A stretch of 64,000 nt of DNA, from the NCBI GenBank assembly GCA_945885475.1, contig CAMCYR010000002.1, forward strand, positions 37,633-101,632, written 5' to 3'. Below are positions 16,478-58,411 of the stretch, in pieces; within the stretch, counting starts at the first letter, position 1; each line of letters begins with the position of its first letter. The stretch comes from Chitinophaga pinensis. GTDB taxonomy: Bacteria > Bacteroidota > Bacteroidia > 2-12-FULL-35-15. The notes below the pieces were generated by a model. That model saw nothing but the letters and a program-made list of their open reading frames with translations, was not told the DNA's origin and ran no database searches. Both the position numbers and the translations under genes were made by a program.

Positions 16478-16528
16478 GCACTTCGACTTTAGTTTATGGT
16501 GAGCGGAGTCGGATCCACTCCGTGTGAC
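16478..16528. repeat. Degenerate copy of the CGAGCGGAGTCGAG (REP-like) family
   Basis: cacttcgac...GAGCGGAGTCGgatcCACTCCGtgtgac, an internal palindrome in the nuoA-nuoB gap. Confidence 0.45.
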
Positions 16529-16578
16529 AAAGAGAGTAGAGAGTTCGTGTATTAATAAAATTATTGTTAGAACAAATT

Positions 16579-16608
16579 CCCCCTTTGAAAAAGGGGGTTA
16601 GGGGGATT
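16579..16608 (+). repeat. GGGG-hairpin intergenic repeat (nuoA-nuoB gap)
   Basis: CCCCCTTTgaaAAAGGGGG tta GGGGGATT. Confidence 0.5.
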
Positions 16609-16638
16609 AAAAACAATGCCCATTTAAAAAAGAAATAA

Positions 16639-30948: not shown

Positions 30949-32196
30949 ATGAAATTTAAAAAACCATCGCTCATTGTTCAGATATTTTCAGGAATGCTCC
31001 TGGGAATCATTGTTGGATATTTCTGGAAAGACTTCGCACCAAGTTTGCACATTCTGAGCGATATTTTTATGCGCTTCATCAAAATGATCATTGCTCCACT
31101 GGTATTCTCCGTATTAGTGGTTGGTGTTGCCAAGGTGGGCGACTTTAAATCTGTAGGACGAATAGGAATAAAGACACTTTTGTATTTTACAACAGCTGCA
31201 ATTATTTCATTATTATTGGGATTAATGCTGGTGAATGTTTTTGCTCCCGGTAAAAAAATGCATCTGGAATTGCCCCCGGTTGATGCTGAAGTAGGTGTTC
31301 AGGTAGCGAAAGAATTTGACACAAAAAATTTTATCAATCACATTATCCCTGAAAGTATTGTGGATGTGATGGCTAAAAACGAAATATTACCCATCGTTAT
31401 TTTTGCTTTGTTTTTTGGTATTGCTGCGGCATCTGTTGGTAGCAAAGGAAAAGTGGTGGTCGATTTTTTCGATTCTATTTCTCACATCATGTTTAAGGTT
31501 ACTAATTATGTAATGTCTTTTGCTCCCTTTGGCGTGTTTGGTGCTTTAGCTGCAGTGGTCGCAAAGCAAGGACTGGGCGTTCTCACGGGTTATCTCTACC
31601 TGATCGGAACATTCTATCTCGGATTATTTTTGTTTGTTTTCGGGGTGTTATTTCTGATTTGTTTTTTCATGAAAATAAATTTTTTCAAACTGCTGAACTA
31701 CATCAAAGAACCAATTTTGCTGGCTTTTAGTACGGCAAGTTCAGAAGCGGCAATGCCAAAAACAATTGAGTCGCTCGAACGATTTGGTTGCGGTAACCGG
31801 ATTGTAAGCTTTGTTTTGCCACTTGGGTATTCTTTTAACCTTGATGGTTCTATGATGTACATGACTTTTGCTACCGTATTTATTGCTCAGGCTTACGGTA
31901 TAGAAATGTCTGTTGGTCAGCAGATCACGATGTTGTTGATTTTGTTAATTACCAGTAAAGGGGTAGCGGGAATACCTCGTGCCTCACTTGTTGTTATTGC
32001 AGGAATGCTTGCTCACTTTAATATTCCTGTTGCAGGATTGCTGTTATTGTTGGGCATCGATCAGATTTTAGATATGGGACGCTCCGCAACCAATGTAGTA
32101 GGGAATGCTGTTGCAACAGTCGTCATCTCCAAATGGGAAGGGGAGCTCCATGAGCATAAGGTCAATCCCGACATTGATAAAGTAAAATTGGATTAA
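30949..32196 (+). CDS. Dicarboxylate/amino acid:cation symporter (DAACS family, GltP/DctA-like)
   Basis: It is 415 aa with multiple transmembrane segments and carries conserved DAACS motifs (…PLGYSFNLDGS…, …IDQILDMGRSATNVVGNAVA…). Confidence 0.85.
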   Translation: MKFKKPSLIVQIFSGMLLGIIVGYFWKDFAPSLHILSDIFMRFIKMIIAPLVFSVLVVGVAKVGDFKSVGRIGIKTLLYFTTAAIISLLLGLMLVNVFAPGKKMHLELPPVDAEVGVQVAKEFDTKNFINHIIPESIVDVMAKNEILPIVIFALFFGIAAASVGSKGKVVVDFFDSISHIMFKVTNYVMSFAPFGVFGALAAVVAKQGLGVLTGYLYLIGTFYLGLFLFVFGVLFLICFFMKINFFKLLNYIKEPILLAFSTASSEAAMPKTIESLERFGCGNRIVSFVLPLGYSFNLDGSMMYMTFATVFIAQAYGIEMSVGQQITMLLILLITSKGVAGIPRASLVVIAGMLAHFNIPVAGLLLLLGIDQILDMGRSATNVVGNAVATVVISKWEGELHEHKVNPDIDKVKLD

Positions 32197-32256: not shown

Positions 32257-32362
32257 GTCAGTTCGAGCGGAGTCGATTGTCAGTTCGAGCGGAGTCGAGA
32301 ACAAGATTAATAATAGTAAAGAAAAATGCTTGTCGCCAGTCACTTCGAGCGGAGTCGAGAAG
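32257..32362. repeat. Three tandem units of the CGAGCGGAGTCGAG (REP-like) family
   Basis: tGTCAGTTCGAGCGGAGTCGAttg, GTCAGTTCGAGCGGAGTCGAGAAc and GTCACTTCGAGCGGAGTCGAGAAg. Confidence 0.6.
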
Positions 32363-33009
32363 CAAAGGGCTTAATTCATAGCACAGTGATAGAATTCCTA
32401 AAACAACTTACCGATCCCCATTCCATCATACAATTTGGTGGAATCGCCCTTTTGCTTTTTGTGATATTTGCTGAAACGGGTTTGTTGGTCGGTTTTTTCC
32501 TTCCCGGTGATTCACTTGTTTTTATTTCAGGAATGGTCTGTGTTTCAAAGCCGGAGCTTCTTGGAGTAAATCTTCCCGTTTTGATCTTGTCATTGTCGGT
32601 AGCAGCTATCGTTGGAAATGTTGCCGGTTATTGGTTCGGCAAAAAGGTTGGTACTCCCTTGTTTCAACGAACAGATTCTTTTATCTTTAAAAAGCGATAC
32701 TTGGAAGTTACCCGAAGATTTTATGCTAAAAATGGGGGCAAAACACTCATTATTGGGAGGTTTTTGCCCATCATACGCACTTTTGCACCCATTCTTGCCG
32801 GAGTTATCAACGTTGATTTTAAAAAATTTATGGTGTACAATATCATTGGAGCCTTCGCTTGGATCGGCTCCCTGTGTAGCATCGGATATTTCCTTGGAAC
32901 GCATAAATGGGTCCAGGAAAATATTGGCGCCATTGTGATCGGACTAATTATTATCACTGCCATTCCTGTGCTTACCACCTTCCTTCAAGAAAGAAAAAAT
33001 AAACAATGA
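32326..33009 (+). CDS. DedA family (VTT/SNARE-associated domain) membrane protein
   Basis: GFFLPGDSL and ...IGRFLPIIRTFAP... are the motifs. The first 20 codons of the tracked ORF are translated REP repeat sequence. The true start is probably the GTG at 32386, by alignment with the paralog at 33014. Confidence 0.8.
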   Translation: MLVASHFERSREAKGLIHSTVIEFLKQLTDPHSIIQFGGIALLLFVIFAETGLLVGFFLPGDSLVFISGMVCVSKPELLGVNLPVLILSLSVAAIVGNVAGYWFGKKVGTPLFQRTDSFIFKKRYLEVTRRFYAKNGGKTLIIGRFLPIIRTFAPILAGVINVDFKKFMVYNIIGAFAWIGSLCSIGYFLGTHKWVQENIGAIVIGLIIITAIPVLTTFLQERKNKQ

Positions 33010-43566: not shown

Positions 43567-43652
43567 AAAACCTTACAACATAATAGCTGTAAGGTTTCTT
43601 TTTGCTCCCTCTGCTGGACTTGAACCAGCGACCCTCTGATTAACAGTCAGAT
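43567..43652 (-). repeat. att-like direct repeat, copy 1. It is a 48-nt copy of the 3' half of tRNA-Asn (43605-43652) plus an adjacent terminator hairpin (43571-43595).
   Basis: On the minus strand CTGACTGTTAATCAGAGGGTCGCTGGTTCAAGTCCAGCAGAGGGAGCA is identical to the anticodon-stem-to-3'-end of the intact tRNA at 51319-51392. There is no 5' half, D-arm or acceptor partner. The hairpin is CCTTACA...TGTAAGG. Confidence 0.75.
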
Positions 43653-43768
43653 AACCAAATTGGGTAAACCCAATATTGGTAGGCTCTAACAGGTATAGAG
43701 AAATATTTGTGCACATAATTTGCAAGTTTTAGCCTGATTATTATTTCGTTTACTGCAAATATAATATT

Positions 43769-51318: not shown

Positions 51319-51392
51319 CTCCCTCTGCTGGACTTGAACCAGCGACCCTCTGATTAACAGTCAGATGCTCTAACCAGCTGAGCTAAGAAGGA
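51319..51392 (-). tRNA. tRNA-Asn (anticodon GTT)
   Basis: On the minus strand the sequence is UCCUUCU-UA-GCUC-AGCUGGUUA-GAGC-A-UCUGA-CUGUUAA-UCAGA-GGGUC-GCUGG-UUCAAGU-CCAGC-AGAGGGA-G. The 7-bp acceptor stem has one G-U pair. The anticodon loop CU-GUU-AA gives GUU. The T-loop is GTTCAAGT. The 5' U is as in E. coli tRNA-Asn. A terminator hairpin lies at 51292-51315. Confidence 0.9.
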
Positions 51393-53889: not shown

Positions 53890-53987
53890 TGTCACTTCAG
53901 ACAATGTGAGTTTTGTCATTTCTGAGCTCATCCAATTTCTTTATTTCGAGCGGAGTCGCTTGTTATTTCGACAGCAGTCGAGAAATT
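53890..53987. repeat. Degenerate units of the CGAGCGGAGTCGAG (REP-like) family
   Basis: gtcacttcag...TTCGAGCGGAGTCGct...TTCGAcaGcAGTCGAGAAat. Confidence 0.45.
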
Positions 53988-54038: not shown

Positions 54039-56720
54039 ATGAGTTCTATTAAACATGTTTTTATCATTGCAACAGCGGTTGTGTTTTCTTCTTGTAATGT
54101 ATTTAAAAAGGCCAGCGAAAAAGACGATGATCTGTTTGTGATGAATCTGGATACCATCCAGGCCTTGTCAACGATTCAGGAACCCGTTCTTTATCGCGCT
54201 TCTGAAACACGCGTCAATGATATCATTCATACAAAATTGGATGTGAGTTTCGATTGGAAAAAACAATACTTGTATGGAAAAGCAACCATTACATTGAAAC
54301 CCTATTTTTATCCGACTTCCTCCCTGCAGCTTGACGCAAGGGGCATGGAACTGAAAGAATTGTCCGTATTAAAAAAAATAGTTCATGAATCCAAGCCTGC
54401 TAAAAAGGGTGTGGCTGCCGAACCGGCTGTTGAAGAGCTCATTAAAACACCTTTGCAGTACAGTTATGAAAACGATGTTATTACCATTCAGTTGGATAAG
54501 GTCTACAAAAATAATGAAGAATATACCGTTTTTATCGAGTATGTTTCTAAGCCCAATGAGTTGAAAAAAGTAGGTGGCAGCGCAGCCATAACCGATGATA
54601 AAGGATTGTATTTTATTAATCCGGAAGGAAAAGAAAAAGACAAGCCGATGGAGATCTGGACGCAAGGAGAAACGCAATCAAGCTCTGTTTGGTTTCCTAC
54701 AATTGATCGCCCGAATGAGCGTATGACCCAAGAGATTTATATGACCGTTGATAAAAAATACGTTACGCTTTCCAATGGGGAATTGGTTTCTTCCTTCGAC
54801 AATGGTGATAGCACACGCACCGATTACTGGAAAATGGATTTACCGCATGCTCCGTATTTAGCAATGATGGCTGTTGGTGATTTTGCTGTTGTGAAGGATA
54901 ACACCTGGAGAGGCAAGGAAGTGAATTATTATGTAGACAAAGCTTTTGAACCCTATGCAAAAGCTATTTTTGGAAACACACCCGAGATGCTCGAGTTTTT
55001 TTCTAACACTTTAGGTGTAGAATATGTATGGAATAAATATTCTCAAATTGTTGCCCGCGATTTTGTTTCGGGTGCCATGGAGAATACCACCGCAACATTA
55101 CACAGTGAATATTTACAGCTTACCGACAGAGAACTGTTAGATAAAGATTATGAGGATTATATTTCTCACGAACTATTTCATCAATGGTTTGGTGATTTGG
55201 TTACCTGTGAATCTTGGAGCAACCTGCCTTTGAATGAATCTTTTGCAACATATGGTGAATATTTATGGGAGGAATATAAATATGGTTTGGATGCAGCTGA
55301 TCAGCACAGTGCCGAATCCCGTGCAGGTTATTTTGCGGAAGCAGATAGAAAACAAGTCAGTCTGATACGTTTTCAATTCGATGACAAAGAGGACATGTTT
55401 GACGGACATAGCTATAATAAAGGCGGACAAGTTCTGCACATGCTTCGTAAATATGTTGGTGACGATGCCTTTTTTGCTTCTTTGAAATTGTATCTCGAAA
55501 CAAATAAATATACTTCTGTTGAGATCCATCAGTTGAGAATGGCATTTGAAAAAGTGTGTGGTGAAGACTTGAATTGGTTTTTCAATCAATGGTTCCTGTC
55601 TCCCGGACACCCCGATCTTATTATCAATACAGAATACGATGCAACAGCTAAAATTCAAAAAGTACAGATAAAACAAGTACAGGATTTTTCAAAAACACCC
55701 TTGTTTAAAATTCCAATGTTCATTGATTTATATGCGAATGGTAAAGTAGATCGCCAAAAAATTACCATTACAAAAGCGGATGAAACATTTGAGTTTGCAG
55801 CCGTTTCAAAGCCAAATCTAGTAAATGTAGATGCACAAAAAATGCTGTTGTGCACAAAGAACGAACAGAAATCGCTTGTGGAATGGGCTTTTCAATACAG
55901 GAATGCCCCTTTATATTTAGATCGATTTGAGGCAATCACCAAATTAACGGAACAGGCGGACGACTCCCTATCAACTGAAATTATACTTTCAGCGCTGAAT
56001 GATAAATTCTGGAGCTTACGTTTAGATGCCATAAATTCATTGACAAACATTCAGCCGGGACACGAGAAAATCATTAAGGATAAATTGGTCTTGCTAGCAC
56101 AAAAAGATCCTAAATCGTTAGTCCGCTCAACGGCAATCGAATATTTGGCTTCACACTATAAAGATGCTGATCTGGAAACGGTTTATAAAAATGGATTAGC
56201 TGACCGGTCTTATTATGTGTTAAGTTCATCACTTTCTGCAATCGGCAGATTAAATCCGAGTGAGGCAATTGTATTGGCAAAACAATATGAGAATGATACC
56301 AATGAGGACGTGTTGTTTGCTGTTGCTGATTTGTATTCTTTAAGTGGATTGGATGAAAACAATGAATTTTTTGTTAAAAATGTTTCAAAATTCAGCGGTT
56401 ATTCCATGATCGGATTTATTTCCCAATATGCGGCTTTTTTGAAAAAAGTAAAAAAGGATGAAACGGTGAACAAAGGTGTTGAGGTGTTAGCAACGATTGC
56501 AAGTGACAAGGATGTAACAAAATGGGTGGCCTATTATGCTAAAAAGTCGATCAAAGAAATTGTAAATATGTATGACGATAGAATAACGGCGAATACAGAA
56601 AAAATTAAAAAACTAAAAGATATAAATCCAAATGCGGAAGTGCGTGAATTAGAAATTCAAATTGAAAGCGCTAAAGCACAAAAGGAAAAAGTTGCGAAGG
56701 TTTTCGATACAGTAAAATAG
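54039..56720 (+). CDS. pepN: M1-family zinc aminopeptidase (aminopeptidase N-like) with C-terminal HEAT/ARM-like repeats
   Basis: GAMEN (VSGAMENTTA) and HELFHQWFGD...ESFATYGE (HEXXH-X18-E) are the motifs. It has an N-terminal signal or lipoprotein peptide. Confidence 0.9.
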   Translation: MSSIKHVFIIATAVVFSSCNVFKKASEKDDDLFVMNLDTIQALSTIQEPVLYRASETRVNDIIHTKLDVSFDWKKQYLYGKATITLKPYFYPTSSLQLDARGMELKELSVLKKIVHESKPAKKGVAAEPAVEELIKTPLQYSYENDVITIQLDKVYKNNEEYTVFIEYVSKPNELKKVGGSAAITDDKGLYFINPEGKEKDKPMEIWTQGETQSSSVWFPTIDRPNERMTQEIYMTVDKKYVTLSNGELVSSFDNGDSTRTDYWKMDLPHAPYLAMMAVGDFAVVKDNTWRGKEVNYYVDKAFEPYAKAIFGNTPEMLEFFSNTLGVEYVWNKYSQIVARDFVSGAMENTTATLHSEYLQLTDRELLDKDYEDYISHELFHQWFGDLVTCESWSNLPLNESFATYGEYLWEEYKYGLDAADQHSAESRAGYFAEADRKQVSLIRFQFDDKEDMFDGHSYNKGGQVLHMLRKYVGDDAFFASLKLYLETNKYTSVEIHQLRMAFEKVCGEDLNWFFNQWFLSPGHPDLIINTEYDATAKIQKVQIKQVQDFSKTPLFKIPMFIDLYANGKVDRQKITITKADETFEFAAVSKPNLVNVDAQKMLLCTKNEQKSLVEWAFQYRNAPLYLDRFEAITKLTEQADDSLSTEIILSALNDKFWSLRLDAINSLTNIQPGHEKIIKDKLVLLAQKDPKSLVRSTAIEYLASHYKDADLETVYKNGLADRSYYVLSSSLSAIGRLNPSEAIVLAKQYENDTNEDVLFAVADLYSLSGLDENNEFFVKNVSKFSGYSMIGFISQYAAFLKKVKKDETVNKGVEVLATIASDKDVTKWVAYYAKKSIKEIVNMYDDRITANTEKIKKLKDINPNAEVRELEIQIESAKAQKEKVAKVFDTVK

Positions 56721-56750
56721 AATGCCTAAAAAGAGGGTGTATGTATTGAA

Positions 56751-56955
56751 CTTGACATGGACATTTAAGTATAGATAGGGACACTTGGCTTCTCGACTCC
56801 GCTCGATTGACTTGGGACAAATACTTTTCTTACTTATATTCATCTCGTTCTCGACTCCGCTCGATTGACAGTATTTAAATGACAGCTCAATTGATATCAG
56901 ATAGTCAGTTCGAGCGGAGTCGAGAACCGTATTGTACTAAATAGCAGATTTAAAT
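56751..56955. repeat. Composite REP/MITE-like element A (205 bp). It is built from three 22-24-nt CGAGCGGAGTCGAG-family units, two forward and one inverted.
   Basis: cttgacatggacatttaagtatag...TTCTCGACTCCGCTCGATTGAC ×2 ... GTCAGTTCGAGCGGAGTCGAGAAC...agatttaaat. It abuts the stop codon of the TPR gene. Confidence 0.65.
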
Positions 56956-56956
56956 C

Positions 56957-57274
56957 CTAGTCTTCCAGCATCCACAGCGCTTCATTTAATTCGCCAAGTG
57001 CTTTGTTGTTTTTAATGCTTTTTGCAATCGCTATTCCTTTTGTGTATGTGTCGATTGCCTTCGGTAAATCCTGAATTTGCTCGTAAAATTTACCCAATTG
57101 ATAATAGGCGCCTAAATAATTCTCCTCTCTTAAAAGAACATTTTCAATCAGTTCTATTGCTTTATGTACATCATTCGCTTTCGCGAACTCCAGTGCCAAT
57201 GCATAATTTAAGAAGGAGTCGTTTGGCTCCGTTTTAAGCATTTCTTCAATTTGGGATAATCTTGACATGGACAT
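56957..57274 (-). CDS. Small tetratricopeptide-repeat protein (105 aa) tightly bracketed by REP/MITE-like elements
   Basis: ...ALALEFAKANDVHKAIELIE...GAYYQLGKFYEQIQDLPKAIDTYTKGIA are TPR helices. The first 4 codons lie inside element B. Confidence 0.55.
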   Translation of the reverse strand: MSMSRLSQIEEMLKTEPNDSFLNYALALEFAKANDVHKAIELIENVLLREENYLGAYYQLGKFYEQIQDLPKAIDTYTKGIAIAKSIKNNKALGELNEALWMLED

Positions 57275-57407
57275 TTGAGTATAGACAGGTACACTTGGCT
57301 TCTCGACTCCGCTCGATTGACTATATTTAAATGTCCGCTCGATTGATATCAGATAGTCAGTTCGAGCGGAGTCGAGAACCGTATTGTACTAAATAACAGA
57401 TTTAAAT
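57261..57407. repeat. Composite REP/MITE-like element B (147 bp). It is the same as A except that one 52-nt unit is missing.
   Basis: It is ~93% identical to element A over the shared parts and has the same end sequences (cttgacatggacattt...cagatttaaat). Confidence 0.65.
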
Positions 57408-58411
57408 TGTTTCAGGAATCGTACATCGTTCTCAAAAAATAACCGGAGATCTTTCACCTGGTATTTCAACATTGCAATACGTTCGATCCCCATTCCAAAT
57501 GCAAAACCGCTGTACTGTGTACTGTCGATCTGACAGTTTTCTAAAACAGCGGGGTCAACCATTCCGCAGCCCAAAATTTCTACCCAACCGGCACCTTTAC
57601 AAATGTTGCAGCCGTCTCCTTTGCAAAAGGGGCAAGAGATATCCATTTCAGCGCTGATCTCTGTAAAGGGAAAGTAAGAGGGGCGAAGACGTATTTTTGT
57701 TTCTTCGCCAAACATTTCTTTTGAGAAATATAAAAGCGTTTGTTTCAGATCAGCAAAGGATACTTTTTTATCGATGTACAGGCCTTCTACTTGATGAAAC
57801 TGACAATGTGCACGTGCGGAAATTGCTTCGTTACGATATACTCTGCCTGGAGAAATTGTGCGGATAGGAGGTGCTGTGCCTTCCATAATATGCACTTGAA
57901 CGGATGATGTTTGCGTGCGCAAAACGGTATCCGGATTTTCAGAAATATAAAAGGTGTCCTGCATATCCCGTGCAGGATGATCTGCTGGCGTATTTAATGC
58001 AGTGAAATTATGCCAGTCATCTTCAATTTCCGGTCCATCAGAAACGGTAAATCCGATGCGCGAAAAAATTTCAACAATCTGGTTGCGCACAAGCGATAAT
58101 GGATGACGAGAACCAACAGCAATATTTTCAGCAGGAAGTGTAAGGTCAATTTTTTTATCCTGTGATGTATCGGCCTGCTCGTACTTATCTTTCAGCTGGT
58201 TGATCTTCTCCTGTGCTTTGTTTTGTAGTTCGTTCAGCTTTATCCCGACTTCTTTTCTTAGTTCAGGAGCAACCGTTTTAAACTCTTCAAAAAGTTCTTT
58301 TACCTTTCCTTTTTTACTTAATAGCTTAATACGAAAATCTTCCACATGCTGCAGATTACTTGCTGTGAATGTTTCAATTTCGTTTAATAATTCTTCAATA
58401 CGATCTCTCAT
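57389..58411 (-). CDS. pheS: Phenylalanine--tRNA ligase alpha subunit
   Basis: ...FTEISAEMDISCPFCKGDGCNICKGAGWVEILGCGMVDP... shows the class II aaRS motifs. Confidence 0.95.
   Translation of the reverse strand: MRDRIEELLNEIETFTASNLQHVEDFRIKLLSKKGKVKELFEEFKTVAPELRKEVGIKLNELQNKAQEKINQLKDKYEQADTSQDKKIDLTLPAENIAVGSRHPLSLVRNQIVEIFSRIGFTVSDGPEIEDDWHNFTALNTPADHPARDMQDTFYISENPDTVLRTQTSSVQVHIMEGTAPPIRTISPGRVYRNEAISARAHCQFHQVEGLYIDKKVSFADLKQTLLYFSKEMFGEETKIRLRPSYFPFTEISAEMDISCPFCKGDGCNICKGAGWVEILGCGMVDPAVLENCQIDSTQYSGFAFGMGIERIAMLKYQVKDLRLFFENDVRFLKQFKSVI

Follow-up and report, generated by a model that had tools for sequence, protein, structure and literature searches.

Clusters of a short REP-like intergenic repeat on both sides of a small TPR gene between pheS and pepN in a Bacteroidota genome

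In the window analysed here, by which the whole stretch of 64 kb is meant, a small gene for a TPR protein is located between pheS and a pepN-like gene and is accompanied on both sides by a block of repeated sequence. The genes and the two blocks of this locus are the following:

54039–56720, plus strand: pepN-like M1 aminopeptidase gene, 893 aa (ORF; Pfam Peptidase_M1, 8e-47, and Peptidase_M1_N), convergent with the TPR gene
56751–56955, no strand assigned: block A, 205 nt, a paralogue of the pheS-TPR junction region with three core units
56957–57274, minus strand: small TPR protein gene, 105 aa (ORF, Pfam, homologues, synteny), a resident partner of pheS with vertical inheritance
57261–57407, no strand assigned: block B, 147 nt, composed of the TPR head (57261–57274), the 114-nt pheS-TPR spacer and the pheS tail (57389–57407)
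57389–58411, minus strand: pheS, phenylalanyl-tRNA synthetase alpha subunit, 340 aa (ORF; Pfam tRNA-synt_2d, 2.8e-97)

According to Pfam the product of the TPR ORF is a generic protein with two to three TPR repeats, and the comparison with NCBIfam gave generic TPR similarity only, every score being far under the family cut-offs. Gene callers place the start at the second ATG (57268), resulting in a protein of 103 aa. The database record of the protein corresponds to this 103-aa form, and an exact look-up of the 105-aa form returned no match. For this protein 580 homologues of near-constant length (103–106 aa) were obtained from uncultured Bacteroidota. The source contigs and the closest relatives are metagenome assemblies, and some of the relatives are MAGs labelled Bacteroidetes bacterium.

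An earlier note on this DNA had described two near-identical blocks bracketing the 105-aa ORF, and these could be confirmed: A and B are direct repeats which match at 139 of 147 positions (94.6%) once the extra unit has been removed from A. In the repeat search the similarity appeared as two segments, 56848–56955 versus 57300–57407 (108 nt, 94%) and 56751–56812 versus 57261–57322 (62 nt, 95%). Several details had to be revised. The internal unit by which the blocks differ comprises 58 nt (205−147) instead of the previously given 52 nt and corresponds to one tandem period, which combines a 23-nt repeat with a 35-nt spacer; in A, the tandem cores begin at 56790 and at 56848. As described, B does include the start of the ORF (14 nt), but the TPR stop codon (56957–56959) does not touch block A, which ends at 56955, so that one base is left between them. 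Nor is the 657-nt block an exact fit for the gap between pepN and pheS: a further 30 nt (56721–56750) lie between the pepN stop codon and A, and B reaches into pheS, whose 3′ end, stop codon included, accounts for the final 19 nt of the block.

Both blocks contain a 17-nt core, TTCTCGACTCCGCTCGA, which is present in A as two direct and one inverted copy and in B as one direct and one inverted copy. In each block the inverted pair of cores forms a perfect stem of 18 bp with a 45-nt loop, and the stem of B is lengthened by GTAC...GTAC, reaching 57289–57389. The outer ends of full blocks of this type read CTTGACATGGACAT... and ...CAGATTTAAAT. The individual parts of the blocks were assigned as follows:

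56751–56764, minus strand: copy of the TPR head (14 nt), ATGTCCATGTCAAG, 14/14 identical to 57261–57274
56790–56811, plus strand: REP-like unit R1, TTCTCGACTCCGCTCGATTGAC, a core match
56812–56847, no strand assigned: spacer S, assigned from the alignment and separating the direct units R1 and R2, with a related spacer in cluster C (32302–32344) and at locus L027
56848–56926, no strand assigned: REPIN-like inverted doublet of A, consisting of R2 (56848–56864, plus strand), the 45-nt loop and R3 (56910–56926, minus strand), with the 18-bp perfect stem
56937–56955, minus strand: copy of the pheS tail, i.e. the last 16 coding nt and the stop codon, ATTTAAATCTGCTATTTAG, 18/19 identical to 57389–57407
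57300–57378, no strand assigned: REPIN-like inverted doublet of B with cores at 57300–57316 (plus strand) and 57362–57378 (minus strand) and the 45-nt loop

The copy of the TPR head in A opens an ORF of 12 codons heading towards the 3′ end of pepN.

For the comparison with other genomes, relatives were ranked by the nucleotide identity of their pheS to that of the window. The order pheS-TPR-pepN was kept across the lineages examined, with the exception of one relative (L088), in which pheS-TPR was kept and a different gene lies downstream. Blocks A and B with the same flanks were found in the close clade only, at pheS identities of at least 93% (L001–L010, L139 and L143, as well as L138, which covers A only), and they were absent at pheS identities of 81% and below. 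The spacing in the latter relatives was as follows:

L015, pheS identity 81%: pheS-TPR gap 3 nt; TPR-pepN gap 98 nt with one related hairpin
L144, pheS identity 81%: pheS-TPR gap 3 nt; TPR-pepN gap partly covered
L140/L141, pheS identity 78%: pheS-TPR gap 1 nt; TPR-pepN gap 35 nt, no repeat
L088 (Sphingobacteriaceae MAG), pheS identity 73%: pheS-TPR gap 3 nt; a single family unit directly after the TPR stop codon and a different downstream gene

Two further relatives, L014 and L016, resemble L015 in their tight pheS-TPR spacing without A/B. In a sister lineage (L011 and L142, 78% pheS identity) the same junction carries a different inverted-repeat insert of 117–127 nt, which is located right after the pheS stop codon. 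Because the relatives' gaps amount to 1–3 nt without any element, the comparison indicates that the pheS-TPR pair is old and was originally abutting, TPR being the ancestral, fixed downstream partner of pheS.

The presence of TPR at the same site without the elements, at a distance of 1–3 nt from pheS, speaks directly against the proposal of the earlier note that the whole unit is a miniature mobile gene cassette. It is also the very observation that the note itself had put forward as decisive against the idea. In this proposal A and B would be two MITE-like copies which mobilise the TPR minigene in the manner of a miniature composite transposon. In its favour are the 94.6%-identical direct repeats by which the ORF is abutted on both sides and the occurrence of the inverted-repeat core elsewhere; however, TPR lies beside pheS in all relatives, the element-free ones included, and the ends of the repeats are pheS and TPR coding sequence. 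Within about 1 Mb of fetched DNA the outer flanks and the spacer S of A/B were found at the pheS-TPR-pepN locus only, no target-site duplication was visible at A, B or the independent doublet of L137 described below, and neither the window nor the fetched loci yielded a transposase-like HuH/Y1 ORF. Furthermore, the uniform length of the 580 TPR homologues fits vertical descent. Since TPR occupies the same site without the elements, the homology ends are ancestral coding sequence, the flanks are unique and no TPR-less allele was found, we consider the cassette proposal refuted and leave it next to no probability. The designation of the repeats as REP/MITE-like is fair for the core, which is an inverted doublet with an 18-bp stem and belongs to a widespread family. 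The blocks as a whole do not fit the definition of MITEs: like MITEs they are small and non-coding and have inverted terminal repeats, but they show no target-site duplication, full A/B blocks were found at no other locus among those fetched and their termini are host coding sequence.

The nature of these termini is also informative with respect to the origin of block A. The C-terminus of pheS, KQFKSVI*, is encoded by nearly the same DNA in the insert-free relatives L015, L144 and L140 as well as in L011, and the pheS tail ATTTAAATC(C/T)GTTATTTA(G/A) is conserved coding sequence in relatives without A/B repeats. Likewise, L011 and L142 have a homologous TPR N-terminus, MS-x-SRL, whose codons correspond one by one to those of the window. 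Because the pheS tail and the TPR head are both conserved coding sequence in repeat-free relatives, the copies of them in A must derive from the B region. The outer ends of A/B thus being host coding sequence, block A is, as judged from the alignments, a local duplicate of the pheS-TPR junction and does not represent an element that inserted a second time with its own ends.

We propose that the locus arose in three steps. In the lineage of the window a REP-like cluster would first have come between pheS and TPR, formerly 1–3 nt apart. A copy of the junction stretch, comprising the 16 nt ahead of the pheS stop codon, the entire spacer and TPR up to codon 5, would then have been placed close behind the TPR stop codon, giving rise to A. 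As the copied stretch includes the gene ends, such an event explains why the similarity between A and B runs past the repeat core into the gene ends. The copy could have been formed via a tandem duplication of spacer and TPR with a period of 452–510 nt, followed by the loss of the second TPR body, or via a template switch at the hairpins; by inspection, neither a remnant of a second TPR body nor junction microhomology was seen at the locus. In the third step the number of units would have drifted in both blocks, as the 23-nt direct repeats with their 58-nt period recombined or underwent slippage. Taken together, it is in our view likely that a short interspersed intergenic repeat has formed the clusters A and B around a resident TPR gene, that A was copied from the pheS-TPR junction and that TPR is not a cargo. 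What is seen at the locus is ordinary intergenic evolution driven by repeats and not a mobile gene cassette.

Among close strains the composition of the blocks varies. In L139 block B carries a single unit and forms no hairpin and A carries an extra partial unit, the gene order being kept, and in L143 B is present in the long form including the 58-nt unit. The changes in unit number are multiples of the repeat period. The SNP density per 100 nt, determined from ten contigs of the species to which the window belongs, was 4.9 in A and 5.4 in B (7.0 in the intergenic part of B), compared with 3.8–4.4 in pepN and pheS. The value of 0.6 per 100 nt for TPR in the same ten contigs is biased, because the contigs were retrieved by their identical TPR protein; for the same reason the low SNP count is not taken as a sign of purifying selection on TPR. 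One SNP, at 57370, lies in the stem and is uncompensated in one haplotype.

Flanking direct repeats of this kind could also act as a recombination substrate by which TPR is deleted and re-inserted, resulting in an on/off gene content. With a length of 147–205 nt and an identity of about 95% around a gene of 318 nt, they would in principle be adequate for a RecA-dependent loop-out. We nevertheless regard this explanation as very unlikely, since TPR was present in all contigs anchored independently of it: among two pheS-anchored contigs and seven contigs anchored via the PPIase gene that reach past pheS, there was no TPR-less allele and the spacing was unchanged. Moreover, A and B persist together across lineages which are 5–7% apart in pheS, and the mosaic divergence of TPR in L143 neither starts nor stops at the repeats. 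The 5′ half of TPR and the A flank of L143 are 96–97% identical. The idea that a diverged TPR allele had been swapped into L143 as a cassette was rejected, as the diverged segment lies within the gene, in its 3′ half. Two of the contigs anchored via pheS or the PPIase gene stop within A or B, as assemblies typically do when they run into repeats.

The repeat from which the clusters are built has a wider distribution than the blocks themselves. From 140 aligned core matches, among those listed, the basic unit was determined as 24 nt, TTCTCGACTCCGCTCGAANTGACA, i.e. TTCTCGACTCCGCTCGA-A-N-TGACA, with sharp edges, random flanks and the TGACA end in about 80% of these listed matches. In the 64-kb window the 17-nt core gave 9 matches with at most 3 mismatches versus 0.04 expected, the 11-mer CGACTCCGCTC occurred 10 times versus 0.15 expected, and the unit family was present at five intergenic sites; these counts are much higher than chance would give. 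Apart from A and B the following occurrences were recorded:

about 16480–16530, minus strand: one degenerate unit with the core GAGCGGAGTCG, in an intergenic region
32263–32361, minus strand: cluster C, three units (two exact cores and one with 3 mismatches) and an S-like spacer, in another intergenic region
53940–53985, minus strand: two degenerate units upstream of pepN

A reading of the 23-nt repeat and 35-nt spacer as CRISPR-like was ruled out, the supposed spacer being homologous between A, C and L027.

When one genome per species was searched for the 17-nt core, it was found in at least 120 stretches, nearly all of them, among the matches listed, from Bacteroidota of several classes. Among the same listed matches 110 of 140 lay outside long ORFs, and the units occurred mostly as singlets and in some cases as inverted doublets of either geometry. 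The doublets of further genomes are located at L030, L047, L072, L124 and L126. The orientation of the units relative to the neighbouring ORFs was not biased (at gene 3′ ends 25 opposite versus 21 same, among the matches listed). A second scan, in which JGI metagenome contigs were searched with a pattern of loop plus arm, matched three contigs (L137, L138 and L139). While L138 and L139 turned out to be the same pheS-TPR-pepN locus in diverged relatives, L137 carries at 1243–1322 an independent doublet of ~80 nt, which comprises the arms and the loop only and is 94% identical to 56848–56926; its flanks and neighbouring ORFs are unrelated to the locus of the window. Because this is the only part of A/B that is also present at an unrelated locus, the ~80-nt doublet is likely to be a mobile or copyable module in the manner of REPINs, with L137 as the one independent copy.

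With respect to a mobilising protein, a regular expression for RAYT/IS200-type proteins (HuH...Y-x-x-NP) had no match in the six frames of the window and of about 1 Mb of fetched loci. Rfam at the gathering threshold returned two tRNAs only for the whole window and none for A/B, and a permissive search of 56650–57450 gave best E-values of 2.3–2.7 to unrelated miRNA and plastid models. The motif string had no match in a full-text literature search, and it was absent from the accessible text and supplements of PMC6006769 and the accessible supplements of PMC3733652.

The repeats were furthermore compared with the known families of intergenic hairpin repeats. REPINs, which were described in Pseudomonas fluorescens and other Proteobacteria, are REP doublets that form hairpins and are mobilised by RAYT/TnpA-REP (PMC3116915, PMC3337134, PMC3333891). 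In analogy to them the family described here is intergenic, singlets, doublets and clusters coexist, and the whole doublet including the loop recurs at L137. In contrast to REPINs the single 24-nt unit is not palindromic, its predicted fold reaching only −2.5 to −3.8 kcal/mol with 4–5 pairs, so that it is barely self-complementary. The above regular expression also detected no RAYT gene, either in the window or across the fetched loci (about 1 Mb). The hairpin foot also lacks the GTAG/CGTC tags of REP-RAYT systems (tags according to PMC3733652). The stem feet read ...TTGGC|TTCTCG and CGAGAA|CCGTA in A/B and CACAC|TTTCTCG and CGAGAAA|CGCTG in L137, and the conserved tag of the unit, TGACA, is located at the end opposite the stem foot. 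As the single unit is barely self-complementary and carries no GTAG/CGTC tag, it is not a classical REP. Classical REPs are usually species- or genus-specific, whereas the exact 17-nt core found here is common to several classes of Bacteroidota.

The clusters resemble the BIMEs of E. coli (PMC2817692, PMC3333891) in being composites of units with recurring linkers (spacer S in A, C and L027) and in the strain-variable number of units. They differ from BIMEs, in which the orientation alternates regularly, as A is arranged direct-direct-inverted and C consists of three direct units. Within the Bacteroidetes RAYT subclasses 2.4 and 2.6 occur, the latter with "atypical secondary structures", according to the accessible part of PMC6006769. 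Compared by description, the REPs of subclass 2.4 and the structures flanking subclass 2.6 in the accessible part of that work share with the repeats described here the phylum, the intergenic position and a hairpin structure off the canonical GTAG-REP pattern; in contrast to the systems described there, no tnpA-REP gene is linked to A/B. The best reading is that of a REPIN-like doublet and BIME-like clusters, and REP/REPIN/BIME-like is the best label.

For the possible function of the blocks their folding as RNA was considered. Strong hairpins were obtained for the transcript, B being predicted to fold at −48.4 kcal/mol (z = −5.5) and the bare doublet at −41.6 kcal/mol, and the core stem of B begins 9 nt past the pheS stop codon. 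No intrinsic terminator was predicted in 56500–57600, and no T-run follows either hairpin on either strand. A sigma-70 scan of the locus gave weak promoter-like matches only, and a Bacteroidetes-type TAnnTTTG motif was not seen by eye upstream of TPR.

In E. coli, REPs act as partial terminators and as stabilisers of the upstream mRNA in tandem gene pairs and between convergent genes, as stated in the accessible part of bioRxiv 10.64898/2026.03.23.713779. REP325 of the yjdMN operon is described there as a dual terminator and stabiliser, which was measured in a tandem pair and extended by deduction to convergent genes. In addition, E. coli REPs near stop codons are reported to stall ribosomes, in a work cited in the accessible part of PMC12306157. 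The arrangement found here is similar to that of the E. coli REPs in the accessible part of the preprint (bioRxiv 10.64898/2026.03.23.713779), with one cluster between co-directional genes (pheS and TPR) and one between convergent genes (TPR and pepN). In contrast to REP325, whose function was measured as stated there, the comparison is one of analogy and there is no sequence relationship. By this analogy, hairpins that are transcribed would slow 3′ exonucleases and partly attenuate read-through, with B exerting its effect inside the transcript of pheS and TPR, and A in the spacer where TPR and pepN converge.

Going beyond such incidental effects, the hairpins might be selected cis-regulatory RNA, B attenuating TPR or uncoupling it from pheS and guarding the pheS 3′ end, and A serving as a bidirectional terminator or stabiliser for TPR and pepN. 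The loss of the B hairpin in L139 with the gene order intact, the uncompensated stem SNP at 57370 in one haplotype and a SNP density in A/B (4.9–7.0 per 100 nt) which is not below that of the neighbouring genes all argue against this explanation, as do the unbiased orientation of the units relative to the flanking ORFs, the lack of a predicted U-tract terminator and L140, which is without structure in both spacers. We consider it improbable on these grounds, although the folds of the hairpins are very stable (B: −48.4 kcal/mol, z = −5.5), the stem of B at 9 nt past the pheS stop codon falls inside the ribosome-stalling range of E. coli REPs (as cited in the accessible part of PMC12306157), REP325 both terminates and stabilises (accessible part of bioRxiv 10.64898/2026.03.23.713779) and the TPR-pepN spacer of most relatives contains some hairpin-forming repeat, of various families. 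The suggestion of the earlier note that the elements insulate or stabilise the transcript as RNA structures is thus possible by analogy with E. coli REPs, but it is not favoured in view of the loss in L139, the uncompensated SNP and the missing orientation bias. The A/B repeats probably represent neutral or selfish DNA, and their hairpins may influence the mRNA as a by-product.

REP-type repeats are, to our knowledge, little studied in Bacteroidota. The repeat family described here, with its non-palindromic 24-nt unit and a core conserved across the phylum, seems to be new to the literature. More tentatively, TTCTCGACTCCGCTCGAANTGACA may represent an undescribed, non-palindromic REP-like module with a core that is exact across Flavobacteriia, Sphingobacteriia, Chitinophagia and Bacteroidia and that is spread by a phylum-wide conserved enzyme, perhaps a RAYT of the Bacteroidetes subclass 2.6. 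The hairpin doublets of this module may, in addition, drive local template-switch duplications which take gene ends along, as in A. We regard this as a possible but rather doubtful scenario. The wider point of the locus is modest, and a cross-class 24-nt unit without the hallmarks of proteobacterial REPs merits a systematic survey as well as a search for the mobilising protein. In practical terms, a gene bracketed by repeats resembles a cassette, and it is the comparison of synteny which reveals that the gene is resident and that the junction was duplicated. The locus provides a clean natural example of a hairpin-repeat cluster parting the formerly abutting pheS-TPR pair, of a cluster copied along with coding fragments, and of the drift of unit number among close strains.

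The pheS gene and the gene for the ~105-aa TPR protein abut, with a gap of 1–3 nt, in four loci from distant Bacteroidota (L015, L088, L140 and L144), one of them a Sphingobacteriaceae MAG, and pheS-TPR is a conserved gene pair. At exactly the same junction the sister lineage carries an insert different from that of the window, 117–127 nt in length (L011 3503–3629; L142 1384–1500) and bounded by long terminal inverted repeats (GTACGGATAACGAAT...ATTCGTTATCTGTAC). Both the window insert and the sister-lineage insert start directly after the pheS stop codon and terminate with TGTAC, a few nucleotides short of the TPR start. The presence of different inserts with the same boundaries therefore suggests that the pheS-TPR junction is an insertion hotspot or, alternatively, that a nested insertion into an older hairpin has taken place.

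In block B, the repeat at this junction, the loop includes 16 nt (57321–57336) that repeat, in inverted orientation, the segment containing the TPR start codons (57269–57284), matching it at 14 of 16 positions within B and, again inverted, matching the copy in block A (56759–56774), the near-identical repeat on the other side of the TPR gene, at 15 of 16. This inverted copy could pair with the TPR start region in the mRNA and occlude it. It is not conserved, the loop being missing in L139, a locus of the same clade, and different in a second haplotype. The TPR start copied into block A opens a 12-codon ORF (MSMSSSIHTPSF*) on the minus strand (56725–56764), which is directed into the pepN 3' end. 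Any TPR start signals that B may hold would be duplicated in A.

In L143, a relative with 93% pheS identity, the 3' half of the TPR gene (1700–1880, corresponding to about 56981–57180 of the window) is only 71–83% identical to the window and both of its flanks are 96–97% identical. The gene thus contains a confined stretch that is either mosaic or evolving fast.

Further repeats were found elsewhere in the window:

32263–32361, minus strand: third cluster of the REP-like 24-nt-unit family, three direct units, one with 3 mismatches
53940–53985 and 16480–16530: degenerate units of this family in two more intergenic regions (TTATTTCGAGCGGAGTCGC..., TTATTTCGACAGCAGTCGAGAAAT, and GGTGAGCGGAGTCGGATCC)
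16575–16610: palindromic repeat of another type (CCCCCTTTGAAAAAGGGGGTTAGGGGGAT)

With the degenerate units at 53940–53985, both ends of pepN have members of the family. The third cluster is situated between a transporter-like gene (30949–32196) and a 227-aa membrane-protein ORF (32326–33009), and the spacer between its units resembles spacer S of block A (56812–56847) and a site in L027. Since the mechanically called start of the 227-aa ORF falls within the cluster, the true start probably lies farther downstream.

Among the tRNAs of the window, a normal one (51319–51392) was accompanied by a borderline call of 60 nt at 43605–43664, which scores 29.9 bits where the gathering score is 29 and may represent a tRNA that has been truncated or has degenerated.

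A 'ccccttcc...ggagaagg' repeat similar in type to that at 16575–16610 is located 3' of TPR in L144. More than one family of hairpin repeats, apparently several, is present in the window's genome. In another Bacteroidota genome, MAG JAZKDU01, two copies of a short-loop doublet with the same 17-nt core (L030 310–364 and L047 7138–7192) share about 30 nt of common flank on either side. Bigger repeats with the doublet at their centre therefore also multiply in Bacteroidota genomes other than that of the window.
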